Shown: piece by piece, positions 1 to 4,333 of the stretch | How positions within the stretch are numbered: position 1 is the stretch's first letter | How the letters are laid out: every line of letters begins with the position of its first letter | Virus record (IMG/VR): IMGVR_UViG_3300007747_000094 | Reading direction: 5' to 3' (one strand) | DNA length: 4,348 nt | DNA from: a virus | Taxonomy: Duplodnaviria; Heunggongvirae; Uroviricota; Caudoviricetes | Translations under genes and position numbers: made by a program | The notes under the pieces: generated by a model | Seen by the model: the letters and a program-made list of their open reading frames with translations, nothing else | Database searches by the model: none | Told to the model about the DNA's origin: nothing

Positions 1-439
1 TTGTGTCCCCCTGTTTTGAGGGATAGCAATCCCCCAATTTGAGGGATGTTTTATCCCTCGTTTTAGGGGATTTTCCCTCGTTTTGAGGGATACACCATTC
101 TGAGATGTTTTTATTTGGTCCAAACATGCCGCCTTGCTGCTTGATAATATTCATTCTGACGAGTTCTAACTTGGCTTCATTGCACCGTTTGACGGGTAAC
201 TTTGTAATCTCGCTAAGTTGAGAATCGGTGATTCTGTCCATTGGTTTATTCCATCCATAGGTTTTACGCAGAATGGCAAGCAGCACTTTAAACTGTCGCT
301 TGGTCAGATCTGCGCCTGAATAAGCCTCAAGCAGCATATTTGATAGTCTGGCGTAACCATCATCGAGATCTGCCACATTACGCTCCTGTTTGGCAAAGTT
401 ACCTCTGCAGAAGTTGAGTATTTTTGCTGTATTTGTCAT
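1..439 (-). CDS. O: Replication initiator protein O, N-terminal iteron-binding part; start codon at 437-439, CDS runs off the window start
   Basis: Reverse-complement translation from ATG (rc of 437-439) reads MTNTAKILNFCRGNFAKQERNVADLDDGYARLSNMLLEAYSGADLTKRQFKVLLAILRKTYGWNKPMDRITDSQLSEITKLPVKR..., near-identical to my recollection of lambda O. SD AGGAG lies 6-10 nt upstream on the minus strand. The ori iterons sit inside the coding sequence as in lambda. Missing from the ORF track only because no stop occurs before the window edge. Confidence 0.9.
   Translation of the reverse strand, partial: MTNTAKILNFCRGNFAKQERNVADLDDGYARLSNMLLEAYSGADLTKRQFKVLLAILRKTYGWNKPMDRITDSQLSEITKLPVKRCNEAKLELVRMNIIKQQGGMFGPNKNISEWCIPQNEGKSPKTRDKTSLKLGDCYPSKQGDT
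4..91. repeat. Four ~19-20 bp ori iterons (O-protein binding sites of a lambda-type origin); the AT-rich part of ori would lie beyond the window start
   Basis: Four copies of a TCCCTC-N(5-6)-GAGGGA-like inverted-repeat unit at about 4-24, 29-47, 53-71 and 72-91 (e.g. tccctcgttttgagggat), phased about 20-24 bp apart. They match the lambda ori iteron pattern as I recall it. Confidence 0.85.
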
Positions 440-442
440 AAT
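414..442 (+). promoter_or_regulatory. pO-like promoter for the oop antisense RNA
   Basis: -35 TTGAGT (414-419), 17-bp spacer, -10 CATAAT (437-442). Predicted start near G450, the same geometry as lambda pO. The -10 overlaps the O start codon on the opposite strand. Confidence 0.6.
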
Positions 443-449
443 GACTCCT

Positions 450-527
450 GTGGATTGATCCAGTAATGACCTCAGAATTCCATCTGGATTTGTTCAGAAC
501 GCTCGGTTGCCGCCGGGCGTTTTTTAT
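450..527 (+). ncRNA. oop: oop-like antisense RNA (about 77 nt), complementary to the 3' end of cII mRNA, ending in an intrinsic terminator
   Basis: Sequence 450-527 closely matches the lambda oop RNA as I recall it. Terminator hairpin 500-519 (CGCTCGG / loop TTGCCG / CCGGGCG, one G-U pair) followed by TTTTTTATT (520-528). Antisense to cII codons for the C-terminal residues. Confidence 0.7.
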
Positions 528-768
528 TGGTGAGTCCATCAAGCGCATACTTAAAAGCCCTGCTAATCGGACTGATGTCTGATGCCATTCCGAAAGCACA
601 CAAGACCGAAGCAATAAATCTCCAGTCCGTTCTGCTTATCTTCGATTCATGACAGCCAATCATCTTTGCCAGACCGCGCTGGGTAATAGCTGACAGATTG
701 ATAAGTAAATCTGTTTCTGCGCGATCAACGTCACGCTGTGATAGTTTGCTGTAACTTGTTCTTTCCAT
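472..768 (-). CDS. cII: Transcriptional activator CII (98 aa), mosaic: divergent N-terminal two-thirds, lambda-identical C-terminus
   Basis: ORF track 472..768(-). The C-terminal 21 residues LTNKKRPAATERSEQIQMEF match lambda CII as I recall it. The N-terminal part (MERTSYSKLSQRDVDRAETDLLINLSAITQRGLAKMIGCHESKISRTDW...) is only distantly similar. Position between cro and O is as in lambda. Confidence 0.9.
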   Translation of the reverse strand: MERTSYSKLSQRDVDRAETDLLINLSAITQRGLAKMIGCHESKISRTDWRFIASVLCAFGMASDISPISRAFKYALDGLTNKKRPAATERSEQIQMEF

Positions 769-778
769 TTCTTAAGAT
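746..778 (+). promoter_or_regulatory. PRE-like CII-dependent promoter (establishment promoter reading toward cI)
   Basis: TTGC (746-749) - N6 - TTGT (756-759) flanking a -35 position, then 13 nt, then -10-like TAAGAT (773-778). This is the same geometry as lambda PRE (TTGC-N6-TTGC, 13 nt, AAGTAT), and it lies inside cII codons 3-8 on the opposite strand exactly as in lambda. Confidence 0.45.
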
Positions 779-853
779 TTCCAATAGTGAATAGTTAGTT
801 GAAAGGTATGCATGGAAACGCATATGGCCTTAGTTGGTCAGATATCTTGGAAC

Positions 854-899
854 TCGCTTTTCAGCGACGTAGGACGAATGTCCGTTGTTACAAAGAGCG
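854..899 (-). promoter_or_regulatory. nutR-like N-utilisation site (boxA + spacer + boxB hairpin) just downstream of cro
   Basis: Minus-strand reading: GCTCTTTGTAACAACG (boxA-like; consensus CGCTCTTTA), a spacer, then TCGCT-GAAA-AGCGA (5-bp stem with GAAA loop, boxB-like). Near-identical in layout and sequence to the nutL candidate at 3536-3580. Confidence 0.6.
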
Positions 900-909
900 G
901 ATCCGCTTA

Positions 910-1125
910 TTAAGCGGCTTTGTGTTCCGGCGGGAACACGTCATCAAGACTGACTTTTGCGCCTAACTTGTTTAGGCACGCAACAAGAGCACGGCATGTT
1001 TTAAGGTCTGGGAAGCGACGACCAGATTCCCAATGTCCGATAGCTCCCTGTGTGCATCCAACTGCCTTAGCAAGTGTTGTTTGAGAGATATTCAGTGACT
1101 CTCGATATTTTCGTAGGTTGCTCAT
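910..1125 (-). CDS. cro: Cro-like HTH (XRE-family) repressor, 71 aa
   Basis: The internal ATG (rc of 1123-1125) of ORF 910..1296(-) gives MSNLRKYRESLNISQTTLAKAVGCTQGAIGHWESGRRFPDLKTCRALVACLNKLGAKVSLDDVFPPEHKAA. GGAGGG SD sits 3 nt upstream of the ATG. The HTH motif is present. It diverges from cI across a 117-bp operator region and is followed by nutR and cII, which is the canonical Cro position. Confidence 0.8.
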   Translation of the reverse strand: MSNLRKYRESLNISQTTLAKAVGCTQGAIGHWESGRRFPDLKTCRALVACLNKLGAKVSLDDVFPPEHKAA

Positions 1126-1242
1126 ATGCCCTCCATAGTAAACACGAATAAAAAAATACAATATGTACTTTGCGAATACAAGTAAAAATACACATTGTGC
1201 ATGGATGGTTCCAGTACAGAGCGTAATAATAAGGACATGAAA
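1126..1242. promoter_or_regulatory. OR-like divergent operator/promoter region (PR toward cro, PRM toward cI)
   Basis: 117-bp AT-rich intergenic region between divergent cro and cI. Half-site-symmetric elements TACAATATGTA (1157-1167) and TACACATTGTG (1189-1199) lie about 32 bp apart. Possible PR on the minus strand: -35 TTGTAT (rc of 1175-1180), 17-bp spacer, -10 TATTTT (rc of 1152-1157). Exact operators and promoters are not resolved. Confidence 0.6.
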
Positions 1243-1896
1243 ATGAAATGGTATGAACTGGCTAGATCCAGAATGAAAGAGCTCGGCATAACTCAAGAGA
1301 AGTTAGCCGAAGAGCTAGGTATGACGCAGGGTGGGATTGGACACTGGTTGCGCGGATCTCGTCATCCATCTCTTAGTGATATTGGTGTGGTGTTTAAATA
1401 CCTTGGTATTGATAACATATCATTCAACCACGACGGGACATTTTCACCTGTTGGCGAATACTCATCGGCCCCAGTTAAAAAACAATATGAGTACCCTGTT
1501 TTTTCTCATGTTCAGGCTGGGATGTTCTCTCCAGAACTCAGAACCTTTACCAAAGGCGATGCGGAGAGATTGGTAAGCACAACCAAAAAAGCCAGTGACT
1601 CTGCATTCTGGCTTGAGGTTGAAGGTAACTCAATGACCGCACCAACAGGTTCCAAACCCAGCTTTCCTGACGGGATGTTAATTCTGGTTGACCCTGAGCA
1701 AGCTGTTGAGCCCGGCGATTTCTGCATAGCCAGACTTGGTGGTGATGAATTTACCTTCAAGAAACTGATCAGGGATAGCGGTCAGGTGTTTCTACAGCCA
1801 CTAAACCCACAATACCCAATGATCCCATGCAATGAGAGTTGTTCCGTTGTGGGGAAAGTTATCGCCAGCCAATGGCCTGAAGAGACGTTTGGGTGA
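1243..1896 (+). CDS. cI: CI-type prophage repressor: N-terminal HTH DNA-binding domain plus C-terminal LexA/S24 autocleavage domain
   Basis: ORF 1195..1896(+). Start chosen at ATG 1243 (AAGGA 1229-1233 about 9 nt upstream); ATG 1237, ATG 1201 and TTG 1195 are alternatives. HTH: [20 protein letters not shown]. The C-terminal domain has the S24 catalytic motifs (Ser in EGNSMTAP, Lys in FTFKKL) and ends ...[13 protein letters not shown]..., closely resembling the P22 C2 repressor C-terminal domain as I recall it. Confidence 0.9.
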
Positions 1897-1935
1897 TGAA
1901 ACCACTTTTATCTACAATTTACAGGGCGGTAAACA

Positions 1936-2493
1936 TTGGCAAAAATAGATGATTATCAGCCAAGCCAAGTAGAAGTTGATAAAGTACTTTATTGTAAAAA
2001 AATAGTTAACTTTTCTGGCGTTAAATGGAAACAGAAACCAAGTCGCTCTGATATGTGGCTACAAGCCCATATCATCCCCTTGGATGAGGATTGTATACCT
2101 ATACAAGGGCTAAAGTTTGAACTGAAATGGAAACCAGATCAGGATTCAGAACCTGATGACCCGATTTCTTACCCTAAAATAAATATTATTGCTTTCTATC
2201 ATAACAAGAGGGTTTTCGCGGTAGATACCTATCACTTTGACAAACACACGAATAGTTACAAGGTCGATCATCCGAAGTACCAAGATATCATTTACGGTGC
2301 TCACTACCATGTATACTATGAAGAAGCTGGATACTATAGTGATAGAATAGCGTTTCCAATCGAAGATGACATAAACCCAGATGACCTGGTAGGGTATTGG
2401 AATTACTTCTGTAAACATCTGAACATAACTTACTCTGGGAGAATACCTTTACCGCTTGAAGATGAGTCGGGGCAAATGGGGTTTGGAATATGA
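1936..2493 (+). CDS. Hypothetical protein A (185 aa), first gene of a two-gene cassette downstream of cI; no recognisable domain
   Basis: ORF 1936..2493(+). The only in-frame start before codon 40 is TTG 1936 (GGGCGG 6 nt upstream); ATG 2053 is the alternative. 39-nt gap after the cI stop with no terminator. Acidic, Tyr/His-rich soluble protein (..AFYHNKRVFAVDTYHFDKHTN..GAHYHVYYEEAGYYSD..). AT-rich relative to flanking phage genes (the first 60 nt are about 27% GC by hand count). Confidence 0.6.
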   Translation: MAKIDDYQPSQVEVDKVLYCKKIVNFSGVKWKQKPSRSDMWLQAHIIPLDEDCIPIQGLKFELKWKPDQDSEPDDPISYPKINIIAFYHNKRVFAVDTYHFDKHTNSYKVDHPKYQDIIYGAHYHVYYEEAGYYSDRIAFPIEDDINPDDLVGYWNYFCKHLNITYSGRIPLPLEDESGQMGFGI

Positions 2494-3242
2494 TGTGCTC
2501 AACAGTGATCTCACAACTAGGTTTCGAATGCCATCCAATAGGCAAGACCTTGAGAATTATCAGTCCATTCACTTACTGTGATGATGGAGAGCATGTCGGT
2601 GCCTTTATCCGTGAAGTCAATGGTAGGTATTTAGTTAGTGACAGATGCGATGCCTTAATGAATATGGAGGCAAGAGGGATCTCGCTTACCAAAAAACGAC
2701 TTGATGAGATACGACAATTACTGCTTAAAGAAGGCGCAGAACTCAATGCTCGAGGAGAAATCATTGCTTGGGCAACAGAAAAGGATGTCGGTGCGATTAC
2801 ATCGAACATAATTAGAGCTGGTATACTCGCATCAACTTTGTCGTTAGACTGGTATCAGCCAGTTCAAGCTGAAAAGTTTGAAAGTATGGTTATTGATTAT
2901 CTATATCACACAGAGCTTAGAGACGCACTTTCTCTTCGTGAAAACGTATATGGCTTGAGTGGACATCAAATTACCGTCCCTGTAACAATAAAAACCGACA
3001 TACCTAAATACGTTTTTACATCAAGCGTGAAACACGGAGGAAGCTGGAATAGTGCTTACTCATTGCTTGGGAAACTAATTGATCTTAAAGCTTCAAGTGA
3101 GGAGTATAACAACAGATTTGTTGTTATAGACAGCGAAGCAATTGGTGATCAAATGCAACAACTCTCCTTACTCTTCCATGAATCAAGCCAAGTTCTACCA
3201 TTCTCCAAAAGAGAGACTTGGGTTAAGAGACTTGCAGCATAA
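2490..3242 (+). CDS. Hypothetical protein B (250 aa), second gene of the cassette, translationally coupled to protein A
   Basis: ORF 2490..3242(+). ATG 2490 overlaps the stop of ORF A (ATGA at 2490-2493). No obvious transmembrane segment or catalytic motif that I recognise. Followed 6 nt later by an intrinsic terminator. Confidence 0.7.
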   Translation: MMCSTVISQLGFECHPIGKTLRIISPFTYCDDGEHVGAFIREVNGRYLVSDRCDALMNMEARGISLTKKRLDEIRQLLLKEGAELNARGEIIAWATEKDVGAITSNIIRAGILASTLSLDWYQPVQAEKFESMVIDYLYHTELRDALSLRENVYGLSGHQITVPVTIKTDIPKYVFTSSVKHGGSWNSAYSLLGKLIDLKASSEEYNNRFVVIDSEAIGDQMQQLSLLFHESSQVLPFSKRETWVKRLAA

Positions 3243-3247
3243 TACAA

Positions 3248-3273
3248 CCCGGCCTCAGCGCCGGGTTTTCTTT
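3248..3273 (+). terminator. Rho-independent terminator ending the cI / ORF A / ORF B transcription unit
   Basis: CCCGGC (3248-3253), loop CTCAGC (3254-3259), GCCGGG (3260-3265), then TTTTCTTT (3266-3273). Confidence 0.75.
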
Positions 3274-3446
3274 GCCTCACGTTCGCCCACCTAAAAACAC
3301 ATAACCAATTATATTTATTGAAAAATAAATAGATGCAACCCACTAAACCACGCAATTCTGATCTCTCCTTACATCGCCGAGGCAATACATCCACGCTAAA
3401 AAACAACACTATTAAATACAAAGCGTTATAAAAAACCACGCCAACT

Positions 3447-3489
3447 TACAACAAATTGTATTGATCTTGTAAAGTACATATCGTACTAT
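3447..3489 (+). promoter_or_regulatory. PL/OL-like region: candidate leftward early promoter with overlapping operator-like elements
   Basis: -35 TTGATC (3461-3466), 17-bp spacer, -10 TACTAT (3484-3489), about 47 nt upstream of nutL boxA and about 190 nt upstream of N. Overlapping symmetric elements TACAACAAATTGTA (3447-3460), TGTAAAGTACA (3468-3478) and TACATATCGTA (3475-3485) resemble the OR elements. Confidence 0.45.
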
Positions 3490-3535
3490 TTAACCGTCAG
3501 CAGGACGCTGGAAGCCAAATGGAACAGACTGGCAG

Positions 3536-3580
3536 GCTCTTTAAACAACGTCGACTCTCGACTACGTGGCTGAAAAGCCA
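3536..3580 (+). promoter_or_regulatory. nutL-like N-utilisation site (boxA + spacer + boxB hairpin) in the N leader
   Basis: GCTCTTTAAACAA (3536-3548; boxA-like, close to rrn boxA GCTCTTTAACAA), spacer with CTACG, then TGGCT-GAAA-AGCCA (3567-3580; 5-bp stem, GAAA loop). Aligns with nutR: boxA GCTCTTT-AACAACG, spacer ending CTACGT, boxB stem-GAAA-stem. Confidence 0.65.
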
Positions 3581-3678
3581 GATCACCCAACCACATAAGC
3601 TGTGGGATGCAATGCCGAAGCAACCGTCTCAGGAGGAGCTTCGAGATTGCATCGCCAAAGTTTATTCGGGAGGAATCC

Positions 3679-3951
3679 ATGTCCAGAAAAACAGAATTTA
3701 AAGGCACCGCAGCTTCTCGCCGTAGAGCTCGTCGCGCAAATCTGCAAAGTCAGGAGGCGATCAGCTCCGACAAGCTACACAGGCCAACCCCTTCACGAGT
3801 GGTCTTGCAATGCAAGCTCAAACCAGCAATGAGAGCAGAAGTGATAACTCTGACAACGTTGACCAGAAAATATGAAGGTTCAACTTGTCTTCCGAACGTA
3901 GCTCTTTACGCGGCAGGCTACCGGAAATCAAAACAACTGACGGCGAGATGA
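3679..3951 (+). CDS. N: N-type transcription antiterminator (P22 gene 24-like), 90 aa, with an arginine-rich boxB-binding motif
   Basis: Internal ATG 3679 of ORF 3607..3951(+), with GGGAGGA SD 3668-3674. Protein MSRKTEFKGTAASRRRARRANLQ... carries an N-terminal arginine-rich motif. C-terminus ...LPNVALYAAGYRKSKQLTAR resembles the P22 N (gp24) C-terminus as I recall it. Located downstream of PL and nutL as expected. Confidence 0.85.
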   Translation: MSRKTEFKGTAASRRRARRANLQSQEAISSDKLHRPTPSRVVLQCKLKPAMRAEVITLTTLTRKYEGSTCLPNVALYAAGYRKSKQLTAR

Positions 3952-3967
3952 TAAATTCATTTGCTAA

Positions 3968-4333
3968 TTACTTGTTTTTGCCATGCTTATCCTGATAGCA
4001 CTCATGTCTATAGCTTTCAGGGATAACGAAACGGTCGGTATCAGGATATCCAACAGCAGGAGGCCTTCGAACGAGGAGTCCTTTTTTGAGCAATGAAATT
4101 GATTCATGAGCGCCCTTTTCCGTTTGTAGCTGGTTATTAGCGGCTACAGCGAATGCCAAATACGCTCTTTCTCCAAGAGTTAACGAATCAAACAAATCTT
4201 GCACATATTTTTCTTCTTTAGATTTGCGCTTCTGAGCAGCGAATACCTCAATTCTTTCAGTCACAGCGTGATAAGCGGAATTAACAACGCCGTTAAGCAC
4301 ATAGCTAACGCAAAACAACAGGATGTAATACAT
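3968..4333 (-). CDS. Hypothetical protein with a hydrophobic N-terminal segment, convergent with N; the reading frame stays open to the window end, so the true start may lie beyond 4348
   Basis: ORF 3968..4333(-), 121 aa, starting MYYILLFCVSYVLNGVVNSAYHAV (probable membrane helix). No in-frame stop between 4334 and 4348. Its stop lies 17 nt from the N stop on the opposite strand. Function not recognisable from sequence. Confidence 0.5.
   Translation of the reverse strand: MYYILLFCVSYVLNGVVNSAYHAVTERIEVFAAQKRKSKEEKYVQDLFDSLTLGERAYLAFAVAANNQLQTEKGAHESISLLKKGLLVRRPPAVGYPDTDRFVIPESYRHECYQDKHGKNK

Follow-up and report, generated by a model that had tools for sequence, protein, structure and literature searches.

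Do the two small GAAA-loop hairpins in this viral immunity region mark a matched pair of N-utilization (nut) sites, and, if so, does the N protein encoded beside them read boxB with a specificity other than that of lambda? The original prediction, made from the sequence letters, proposed a nutR–nutL pair that shares a boxA, a spacer ending in CTACGT and a boxB with a GAAA loop, and on re-reading all of these sequence statements were correct. We analysed the whole 4,348-nt stretch of DNA (the window), which is 100% identical to Escherichia phages ev207 and ev017 and to two ECOR-derived phages, and around half of which aligns at about 95% identity to the immunity regions of Stx phages (VT2-Sakai, Stx2 II). 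Its ORFs and Pfam matches follow the order O'-cII-nutR-cro-oR-cI-(two ORFs)-terminator-pL-nutL-N-sieB, as in lambda, and by these marks the window is a lambdoid immunity region. Because this is the classical lambdoid order, the window is inverted relative to the lambda map; transcription from pR runs along the minus strand and that from pL along the plus strand. Its genes and control elements are as follows.

1-440, minus strand: start of O, with iterons (ORFs and Pfam)
472-768, minus strand: cII (ORFs and Pfam)
799-824, minus strand: putative Rho-dependent terminator tR1, downstream of nutR (AP000422 'putative rho dependent terminator for pR transcript')
910-1125, minus strand: cro (ORFs and Pfam)
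1153-1181, minus strand: pR, promoter for cro, nutR and cII (position transferred from the AP000422 'putative major rightward promoter'; region 99% identical)
1243-1896, plus strand: cI repressor with S24 peptidase domain (ORFs and Pfam)
1936-2493 and 2490-3242, plus strand: two overlapping ORFs in the rexAB position (ATGA overlap)
3246-3267: terminator
3461-3489, plus strand: pL, promoter for nutL and N, with −35 TTGATC, 17-nt spacer and −10 TACTAT (read from the sequence; position carried over from the 'putative major leftward promoter' of AP000422, with about 93% identity across the aligned 151-nt pL region)
3679-3951, plus strand: gene for the antitermination protein N, 90 aa (PHROG 271 'anti-termination protein N-like'; match to Pfam PF25694 N_peptide at E = 1.5e-32)
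3968-4333, minus strand: sieB (ORFs and Pfam)

Three further features of the region were observed. The ORFs at 1936-2493 and 2490-3242 (plus strand) match, in the same order, PDC-M24A (E = 4.8e-4) and PDC-M24B (E = 4.7e-10), a candidate defence pair in PADLOC, with weak Pfam matches to DUF6978 and DUF1828 and assignment to PHROGs 2017 and 1960; the pair is likely to be a defence or exclusion module expressed in the lysogen, and it is the segment in which the window and VT2-Sakai differ. An oop-like antisense unit on the plus strand (414-523) lies opposite the 3' end of cII, as does lambda oop RNA, and comprises a promoter-like site (414-442; TTGAGT, 17 nt, CATAAT, with TG) and a strong intrinsic terminator (496-523). 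The repressor encoded by cI (1243-1896, plus strand) is, from sequence comparison, a domain-level mosaic: its C-terminal domain is almost identical to the lambda cI of one IMG/VR locus (L063, described below), and its N-terminal DNA-binding domain is unrelated.

Each early transcript of the window carries one nut site, made up of the following parts.

851-899, minus strand: complete nutR, carried by the pR transcript and lying between cro and cII (covariance-model match, 65.3 bits, E = 1.5e-15)
885-899, minus strand: nutR boxA, CGCUCUUUGUAACAA, with core GCUCUUU at 898-892 (read from the sequence)
872-883, minus strand: nutR spacer hairpin, GGAC-AUUC-GUCC (−5.2 kcal/mol, z = −2.7)
868-871, minus strand: nutR UACG linker from spacer hairpin to boxB (read from the sequence)
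854-867, minus strand: nutR boxB, UCGCU-GAAA-AGCGA, a 5-bp stem with a GNRA tetraloop (−5.9 kcal/mol, z = −3.3)
3535-3583, plus strand: complete nutL, carried by the pL transcript and lying about 96 nt before the start codon of N (covariance-model match, 67.1 bits, E = 5.3e-16)
3535-3548, plus strand: nutL boxA, GGCUCUUUAAACAA (read from the sequence; kept across the family)
3550-3562, plus strand: nutL spacer hairpin, GUCGA-CUC-UCGAC (−4.9 kcal/mol)
3563-3566, plus strand: nutL UACG linker (read from the sequence)
3567-3580, plus strand: nutL boxB, UGGCU-GAAA-AGCCA (−6.5 kcal/mol, z = −4.1)

Written out, nutR (899-854, minus strand) reads CGCUCUUUGUAACAA-C-GGAC-AUUC-GUCC-UACG-UCGCU-GAAA-AGCGA and nutL (3535-3580, plus strand) reads GGCUCUUUAAACAA-C-GUCGA-CUC-UCGAC-UACG-UGGCU-GAAA-AGCCA. 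The first lies between cro (910-1125) and cII (472-768), the second 46 nt past the −10 element of pL and 96 nt before N. As first read, the loop at both sites is the four-nucleotide GAAA rather than the lambda pentaloop. Both boxA elements, each 5' of its boxB, are close to consensus (GCUCUUU..ACAA; the consensus is CGCUCUU(U)A, or GCUCUUUAACAA in rrn), and the GCUCUU core is kept in most family members. The 19-nt core CTACGTNGCTGAAAAGCNA occurs exactly twice in the window, once on each transcribed strand, and had no match in 200 shuffles. A covariance model of the family, whose seed included both window sites, found only nutL (67 bits) and nutR (65 bits) in the window, and the next match scored 5.7 bits; at a permissive threshold Rfam returned no nut or boxB family, only chance matches (E at least 0.3).

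The sites are not new and belong to a well-known kind of system, having been annotated as putative in AP000422 and in the epsilon34 record. In VT2-Sakai (Sp5; AP000422.1), both core sites are identical to those of the window and are labelled 'putative N-utilization leftward' and 'rightward'; nutR differs at two bases only, one immediately 5' of boxA and one immediately 3' of boxB. The two N proteins share 98.9% identity, the pL and pR promoters hardly differ, and the window phage (of the ev207/ev017 type) differs in the genes from cI to pL. Phage epsilon34 (EU570103) has the same 14-nt boxB, TCGCTGAAAAGCGA, annotated 'putative NutR - boxB', preceded by the same spacer hairpin and UACG. Its nutL is unlike the nutL of the window, the boxA being degenerate and the spacer stem GAUUCA/UGAAUC, and its N (gp43) carries a short-type arginine-rich motif (ARM), GRRRERRAALQN, on a remainder that is H-19B-like (120 aa), unlike the window N. 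The epsilon34 paper described the N-terminal 27 residues of this N as divergent and predicted a novel boxB specificity (PMC2629481). The literature that we searched, which covered little of the older work, yielded no experimental study of this N–boxB class. Added here are the spacer hairpin, formal covariation and a rule that links the ARM to loop size.

The second pair of the boxB stem is C-G in nutR and G-C in nutL; the original prediction had taken this difference as compensatory, and such changes were upheld across around 300 related loci with N relatives, gathered from IMG/VR, public assemblies and GenBank phages. Across 27 curated sites, 100% of cells in both helices pair, 7 of the 9 pairs have changed on both sides and the covariation score is 0.49, versus 0.12 for shuffled alignments (0/500); slid-partner controls pair at 25-47%. 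In 130 model matches (54 distinct rows), 99.8% of cells are paired and the score is 0.48 versus 0.11 shuffled. The five boxB pairs are 99.6-100% paired, a percentage inflated by an initial site list that demanded ACG followed by a perfect 5-bp hairpin, and three or four of them have changed on both sides. Searching with the sequence-and-structure model, free of that requirement, recovered one imperfect boxB (nutR of locus L107, with a C-C closing pair). The nutL boxB stems of relatives include AGGCU/AGCCU, CGGCU/AGCCG, UGGCC/GGCCA and UGGCU/AGUCA, closing GAAA or GCAA loops. Position is conserved as well: in around 100 diverse loci, the model search placed one site about 100-150 nt before N and the other, on the opposite strand, in the interval from cro to cII. 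Pairs were counted in a seed alignment of tetraloop sites only (A4) and in an alignment made with the model (A5), and left uncounted in a MAFFT alignment of all loop classes together (A3), which displaced the 3' arms of pentaloops and the GAUUC-type spacers. A pairing-independent regular-expression scan (ACAAYG...YACG) was too noisy to supply a site list and exposed one imperfect site and a class with CGAGAAC loops; a contig scan with the N alignment gave 10 loci only, few of them useful.

RNA folding, proposed at the outset as a check, gave stable boxB hairpins at both sites in isolation (−5.9 kcal/mol for nutR and −6.5 kcal/mol for nutL, with 0 of 200 shuffles as stable). In protein-free equilibrium folding of 61-nt segments (845-905, minus strand; 3530-3590, plus strand), the predicted minimum was a fold that joins boxA to both the loop and the 3' arm of boxB (−16.3 and −14.1 kcal/mol, versus −11.7 and −12.0 kcal/mol for the two-hairpin fold); boxB was populated in only 2-6% of these ensembles, and removing boxA restored the two-hairpin fold as the minimum. 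Such predictions would fit a structural switch in which boxA hides boxB until NusB–NusE capture boxA. We consider this very unlikely, because the boxA:boxB helix shows no covariation (76.0% paired versus 74.5% shuffled; score 0.052 versus 0.044), the base preceding GCU in boxA varies without compensation, the z-scores of the fold are only −1.2 to −1.4, and H-19B-type nutL sites retain all other elements with no boxA able to pair. The alternative helix was rejected for this lack of covariation support, and we regard the complementarity as incidental, arising from a boxA rich in U and a loop rich in A. The same fold could have kinetic relevance if the binding of NusB–NusE to boxA frees boxB.

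Just 3' of the nutL boxB, a third hairpin was seen at 3591-3605 on the plus strand (CCACA-UAAGC-UGUGG, then GAUG). Relatives have CCAAAG-UGAA-CUUUGG, then G(G/A)UG, at this position, so that the stem changes are compensatory. By its position this hairpin may be boxC-like, or it may be part of a structure in the N leader.

The distance between boxA and boxB had also been remarked on as longer than that in lambda, and in length this holds: the gap is 17-18 nt (counting boxA as about 13 nt), versus about 9 nt in the lambda nutR of L063. Describing the spacer simply as long does not, because a conserved second stem-loop, missed at first reading, ends 4 nt before boxB. In all 27 of 27 distinct nutL spacers, picked without any hairpin requirement, a hairpin of at least 4 bp ends exactly 4 nt before boxB, compared with 6.9% of shuffled spacers. 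Its stem pairs are 100% paired in the family, with compensatory changes, and four nutL stems occur (GGUGA/UCACC, GUCGA/UCGAC, GAUUC(A/G)/(U)GAAUC and GGCGA/UUGCC). The loops vary freely and, in close relatives, can be the sole difference (CUC, ACAC, ACUC, AUC, GCAC). The UACG linker that follows is invariant in its ACG by construction, since ACG was a selection criterion, and its U is C in a few relatives.

Much of this architecture is held in common with H-19B. The H-19B nutR (...GGACAUUCGUCCUACGUCGCUGACAAAGCGAG...) has the spacer hairpin, UACG linker and boxB stem of the window nutR, closing a five-nucleotide GACAA loop; it differs from the window site at boxA and in the cro-proximal flank. 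Over the stretch that runs from the spacer hairpin up to where cII begins, the window is nearly identical to H-19B, HK97 and POCJ13 apart from the one loop base; the experimentally studied H-19B nutR differs there by this single-base indel in the loop and a few substitutions. The two-hairpin architecture, the tR1 region and the C terminus of N are common to the window and H-19B, HK97 and 933W. The spacer stem-loop thus agrees with an H-19B-type site; the loop and the motif do not, because the window has GAAA in place of GACAA and the H-19B ARM, RRRERLKAKALANGVLAR, is seven residues longer than that of the window N. The dyad symmetry of the H-19B spacer is the topic of a 2000 paper by Neely and Friedman (PMID 11123680). 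The hairpin was reportedly named the 'reducer', with structure rather than sequence said to matter. H-19B reportedly requires neither NusB nor S10. Both window sites have GCUCUUU, unlike the H-19B nutL, which is without a consensus boxA, and this retention of a good boxA at both sites hints that boxA is used here. In H-19B, nutR was found to contain two hairpins, and N together with NusA and NusG protects the spacer and boxB (PMC3526286).

The N protein itself matches PF25694 at 112.5 bits over residues 1-90, against a curated cut-off of 27.9 bits. Some public records (for example, AP000363 and AP005153) start N at an upstream ATG, giving 114 aa (3607-3951, plus strand). Homologues begin MSRKTEFKG, and a GGAGGA is found 6 nt before the ATG at 3679; this conservation and the GGAGGA favour the 90-aa form, as in AP000422. 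The original prediction called this N P22-like. P22 gp24 does belong to the same Pfam family, and likeness to it, confined to the C-terminal 24 residues, reaches 79%; the best characterised relative is, however, the N of H-19B/HK97 (41.7% identity overall). The ARM, at about residues 9-27, is GTAASRRRARRANLQSQEA and contains SRRRARRA. Its arginine-rich core, RRRARRANLQSQ, looks more like that of lambda N, which is RRRERRAEKQAQ. A PDB sequence search with N found nothing. Lambda N is largely disordered, and the short N of the window is expected to be so too.

When the N relatives were aligned, several N-terminal motifs were found on shared bodies, and loop type followed the motif. All 140 of 140 loci with a short ARM (..RRRA/ERRA.LQ..) have only GAAA or GCAA loops, at nutL and at nutR, and all 83 of 83 loci with a long ARM (RRRERLK..., with 7 extra residues, the H-19B type) have only GACAA at both sites. 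These counts cover the 223 loci in which both sites were found, which are highly redundant prophages with few independent events (two module swaps and the GAAA/GCAA variation), so the argument is carried by the two independent swaps. In the first, of the epsilon34 type (P0046), a short ARM sits on an H-19B-type body, and this N shares 87.5% identity with H-19B N overall, with almost no differences past residue 37; both of its sites have GAAA within H-19B-like flanks. In the second (P0027), a long ARM sits on a Sakai-type body, and the boxB elements are UGGCC-GACAA-GGCCA and UCGCC-GACAA-GGCGA within nut flanks that are otherwise identical to those of short-motif relatives. A Pantoea-type body shows two more combinations: with a lambda-like ARM, MNAQEKRRAARAEKQSAWK, it goes with GAAAA pentaloops and a short unstructured spacer, and with a fourth ARM, KDNAKSRRNARRAEEAIKARE, it goes with a 7-nt CGAGAAC loop.

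The loci with KDNAKSRRNARRAEEAIKARE are L177, L175 and L178-L182. They have nutL about 120 nt upstream of N and nutR at about 2700-2765 on the minus strand. In this class the boxB of nutL reads GGUGC-CGAGAAC-GCACC and that of nutR GCCAC-CGAGAAC-GUGGC, so that the stem differs in a compensatory way, and boxA, the spacer hairpin and UACG are retained.

Because loop type tracks the ARM and the spacer hairpin does not, the co-variation identifies the GAAA hairpin, rather than the spacer hairpin, as the probable partner of the N ARM, and the boxB of nutR would accordingly be a binding site for it. The reverse assignment, with the spacer hairpin (GGAC-AUUC-GUCC / GUCGA-CUC-UCGAC) as the true N-binding boxB and the GAAA hairpin as an accessory, draws on the fact that a conserved hairpin occupies the place of lambda boxB, about 8 nt past the GCUCUUU core, and that the VT2-Sakai nut annotation stops inside the GAAA loop. 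We find it barely credible: the spacer loop varies freely in sequence and length (3-6 nt), the spacer stems of nutL and nutR are unlike each other within one phage that has a single N, and the spacer hairpin stays constant when the ARM changes, whereas the GAAA/GACAA loop changes. Deleting the H-19B spacer symmetry is also said, again in the work of Neely and Friedman in 2000, to have little effect.

With the GAAA hairpin as the partner of the ARM, the match between loop and motif could still reflect linkage of adjacent DNA, not selection. Under that explanation the sites are nut sites, the four-nucleotide loop is no separate specificity, and a Sakai-type N binds any GNRA-like boxB (GAAA, lambda GAAAA, perhaps GACAA). 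The lambda-like arginine-rich core of N would suit it, and linkage should be strong at nutL, which is only about 100 nt from the ARM-coding part of N. One locus, L063 (IMG/VR UViG 2531839234_000006, 58-4149), even joins a Sakai-type N to a lambda nutR: it has the lambda cI, cro, cII and nutR (GCCCUGAAAAAGGGC, GAAAA loop) together with Sakai-type oL/pL, nutL (GAAA) and N. Lambda boxB is, moreover, described in a passage of PMC12027372 that cites Legault 1998 as a GNRA tetraloop with one base extruded. Yet nutR lies 2-3 kb from N, across a mosaic immunity region, and still matches the ARM in 140/140 and 83/83 loci, and both swap cases retain their nutR flanks, with only the loop and closing pair changed. 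L063, the only locus seen with N and nutR mismatched, looks like a non-functional mosaic, as its pL operators also mismatch its lambda cI repressor, and may have arisen as a defective recombinant or through chimeric assembly. We therefore regard linkage as an unlikely explanation.

The co-variation of loop and ARM thus supports a specificity class apart from lambda, as originally proposed, and apart also from the GACAA type of P22 and H-19B. The window sites resemble lambda nut sites in their boxA-spacer-boxB layout, 5-bp stem, U-A closing pair, G..A loop, similar N arginine core and genomic positions. They differ in having GAAA at both sites, in place of the five-nucleotide loop of the lambda and P22 types: lambda has a GAAAA or GAAGA pentaloop with one extruded base and a spacer of about 9 nt without a hairpin (as in the lambda nutR of L063). 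The ARM of lambda N has Trp18, and the window N has Glu at the matching position. P22 has a 5-bp boxB stem like that of the window, but its loop is GACAA and its ARM is GNAKTRRHERRRKLAIERD; P22 nut sites are not known to have a spacer hairpin.

Taking anatomy, position on both early transcripts, conservation and covariation together, the two elements are very probably the nutL and nutR of a lambda-type system of N-dependent processive antitermination, in its VT2-Sakai/epsilon34 variant. The steps of its action, modelled on lambda, P22 and H-19B, would be as follows. Transcription from pL and pR would copy each nut site into the nascent RNA, where boxA (GCUCUUU..ACAA) would serve as the binding element for NusB–NusE, an interaction established for lambda (PMC3177189). 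Folding of the spacer hairpin would take 12-13 nt out of the path and bring boxA and boxB close together, and the boxB GNRA tetraloop (GAAA, though some relatives have GCAA) would be presented, above a closing U-A pair, to the N-terminal ARM of N. RNA-bound N, with NusA, NusG and other Nus factors, would then stay with RNA polymerase and carry it through tR1 and the terminators beyond, so that cII-O-P could be expressed on the right and the genes past N on the left. The tR1 stretch of the window is nearly identical to H-19B nutR/tR1, which served as a Rho-dependent terminator in vitro (PMC3526286), and tR1 is the putative first terminator that N would suppress.

How the ARM reads the loop is a finer question. 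On the simplest reading, N would recognise a lambda-like GNRA fold without the extruded base, given that boxB keeps the CU-G..A-AG frame of lambda. More specifically, an ARM of the Sakai/epsilon34 type may recognise a true four-nucleotide GNRA tetraloop with no extruded base, which would add an N–boxB mode to the ones used by lambda, P22/H-19B and phage 21; a one-base indel in the loop with a seven-residue indel in the ARM may switch phages between this mode and the GACAA one while the rest of the nut sites and of the N bodies stays the same. We hold the case for this proposal to be evenly balanced. In lambda, the extruded loop base is tied to NusA-dependent function. Were a class without this base confirmed, the extruded-base contact of lambda would be dispensable.

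N/nut antitermination gates early expression and, through Q, the production of Shiga toxin in Stx phages such as VT2-Sakai. The loop classes (GAAA/GCAA, GACAA, GAAAA and CGAGAAC) also form a natural data set of orthogonal peptide–RNA pairs, from which recognition rules or tethering tools could be developed. The N/nutL segment is present in 1293 of 5426 complete E. coli genomes.
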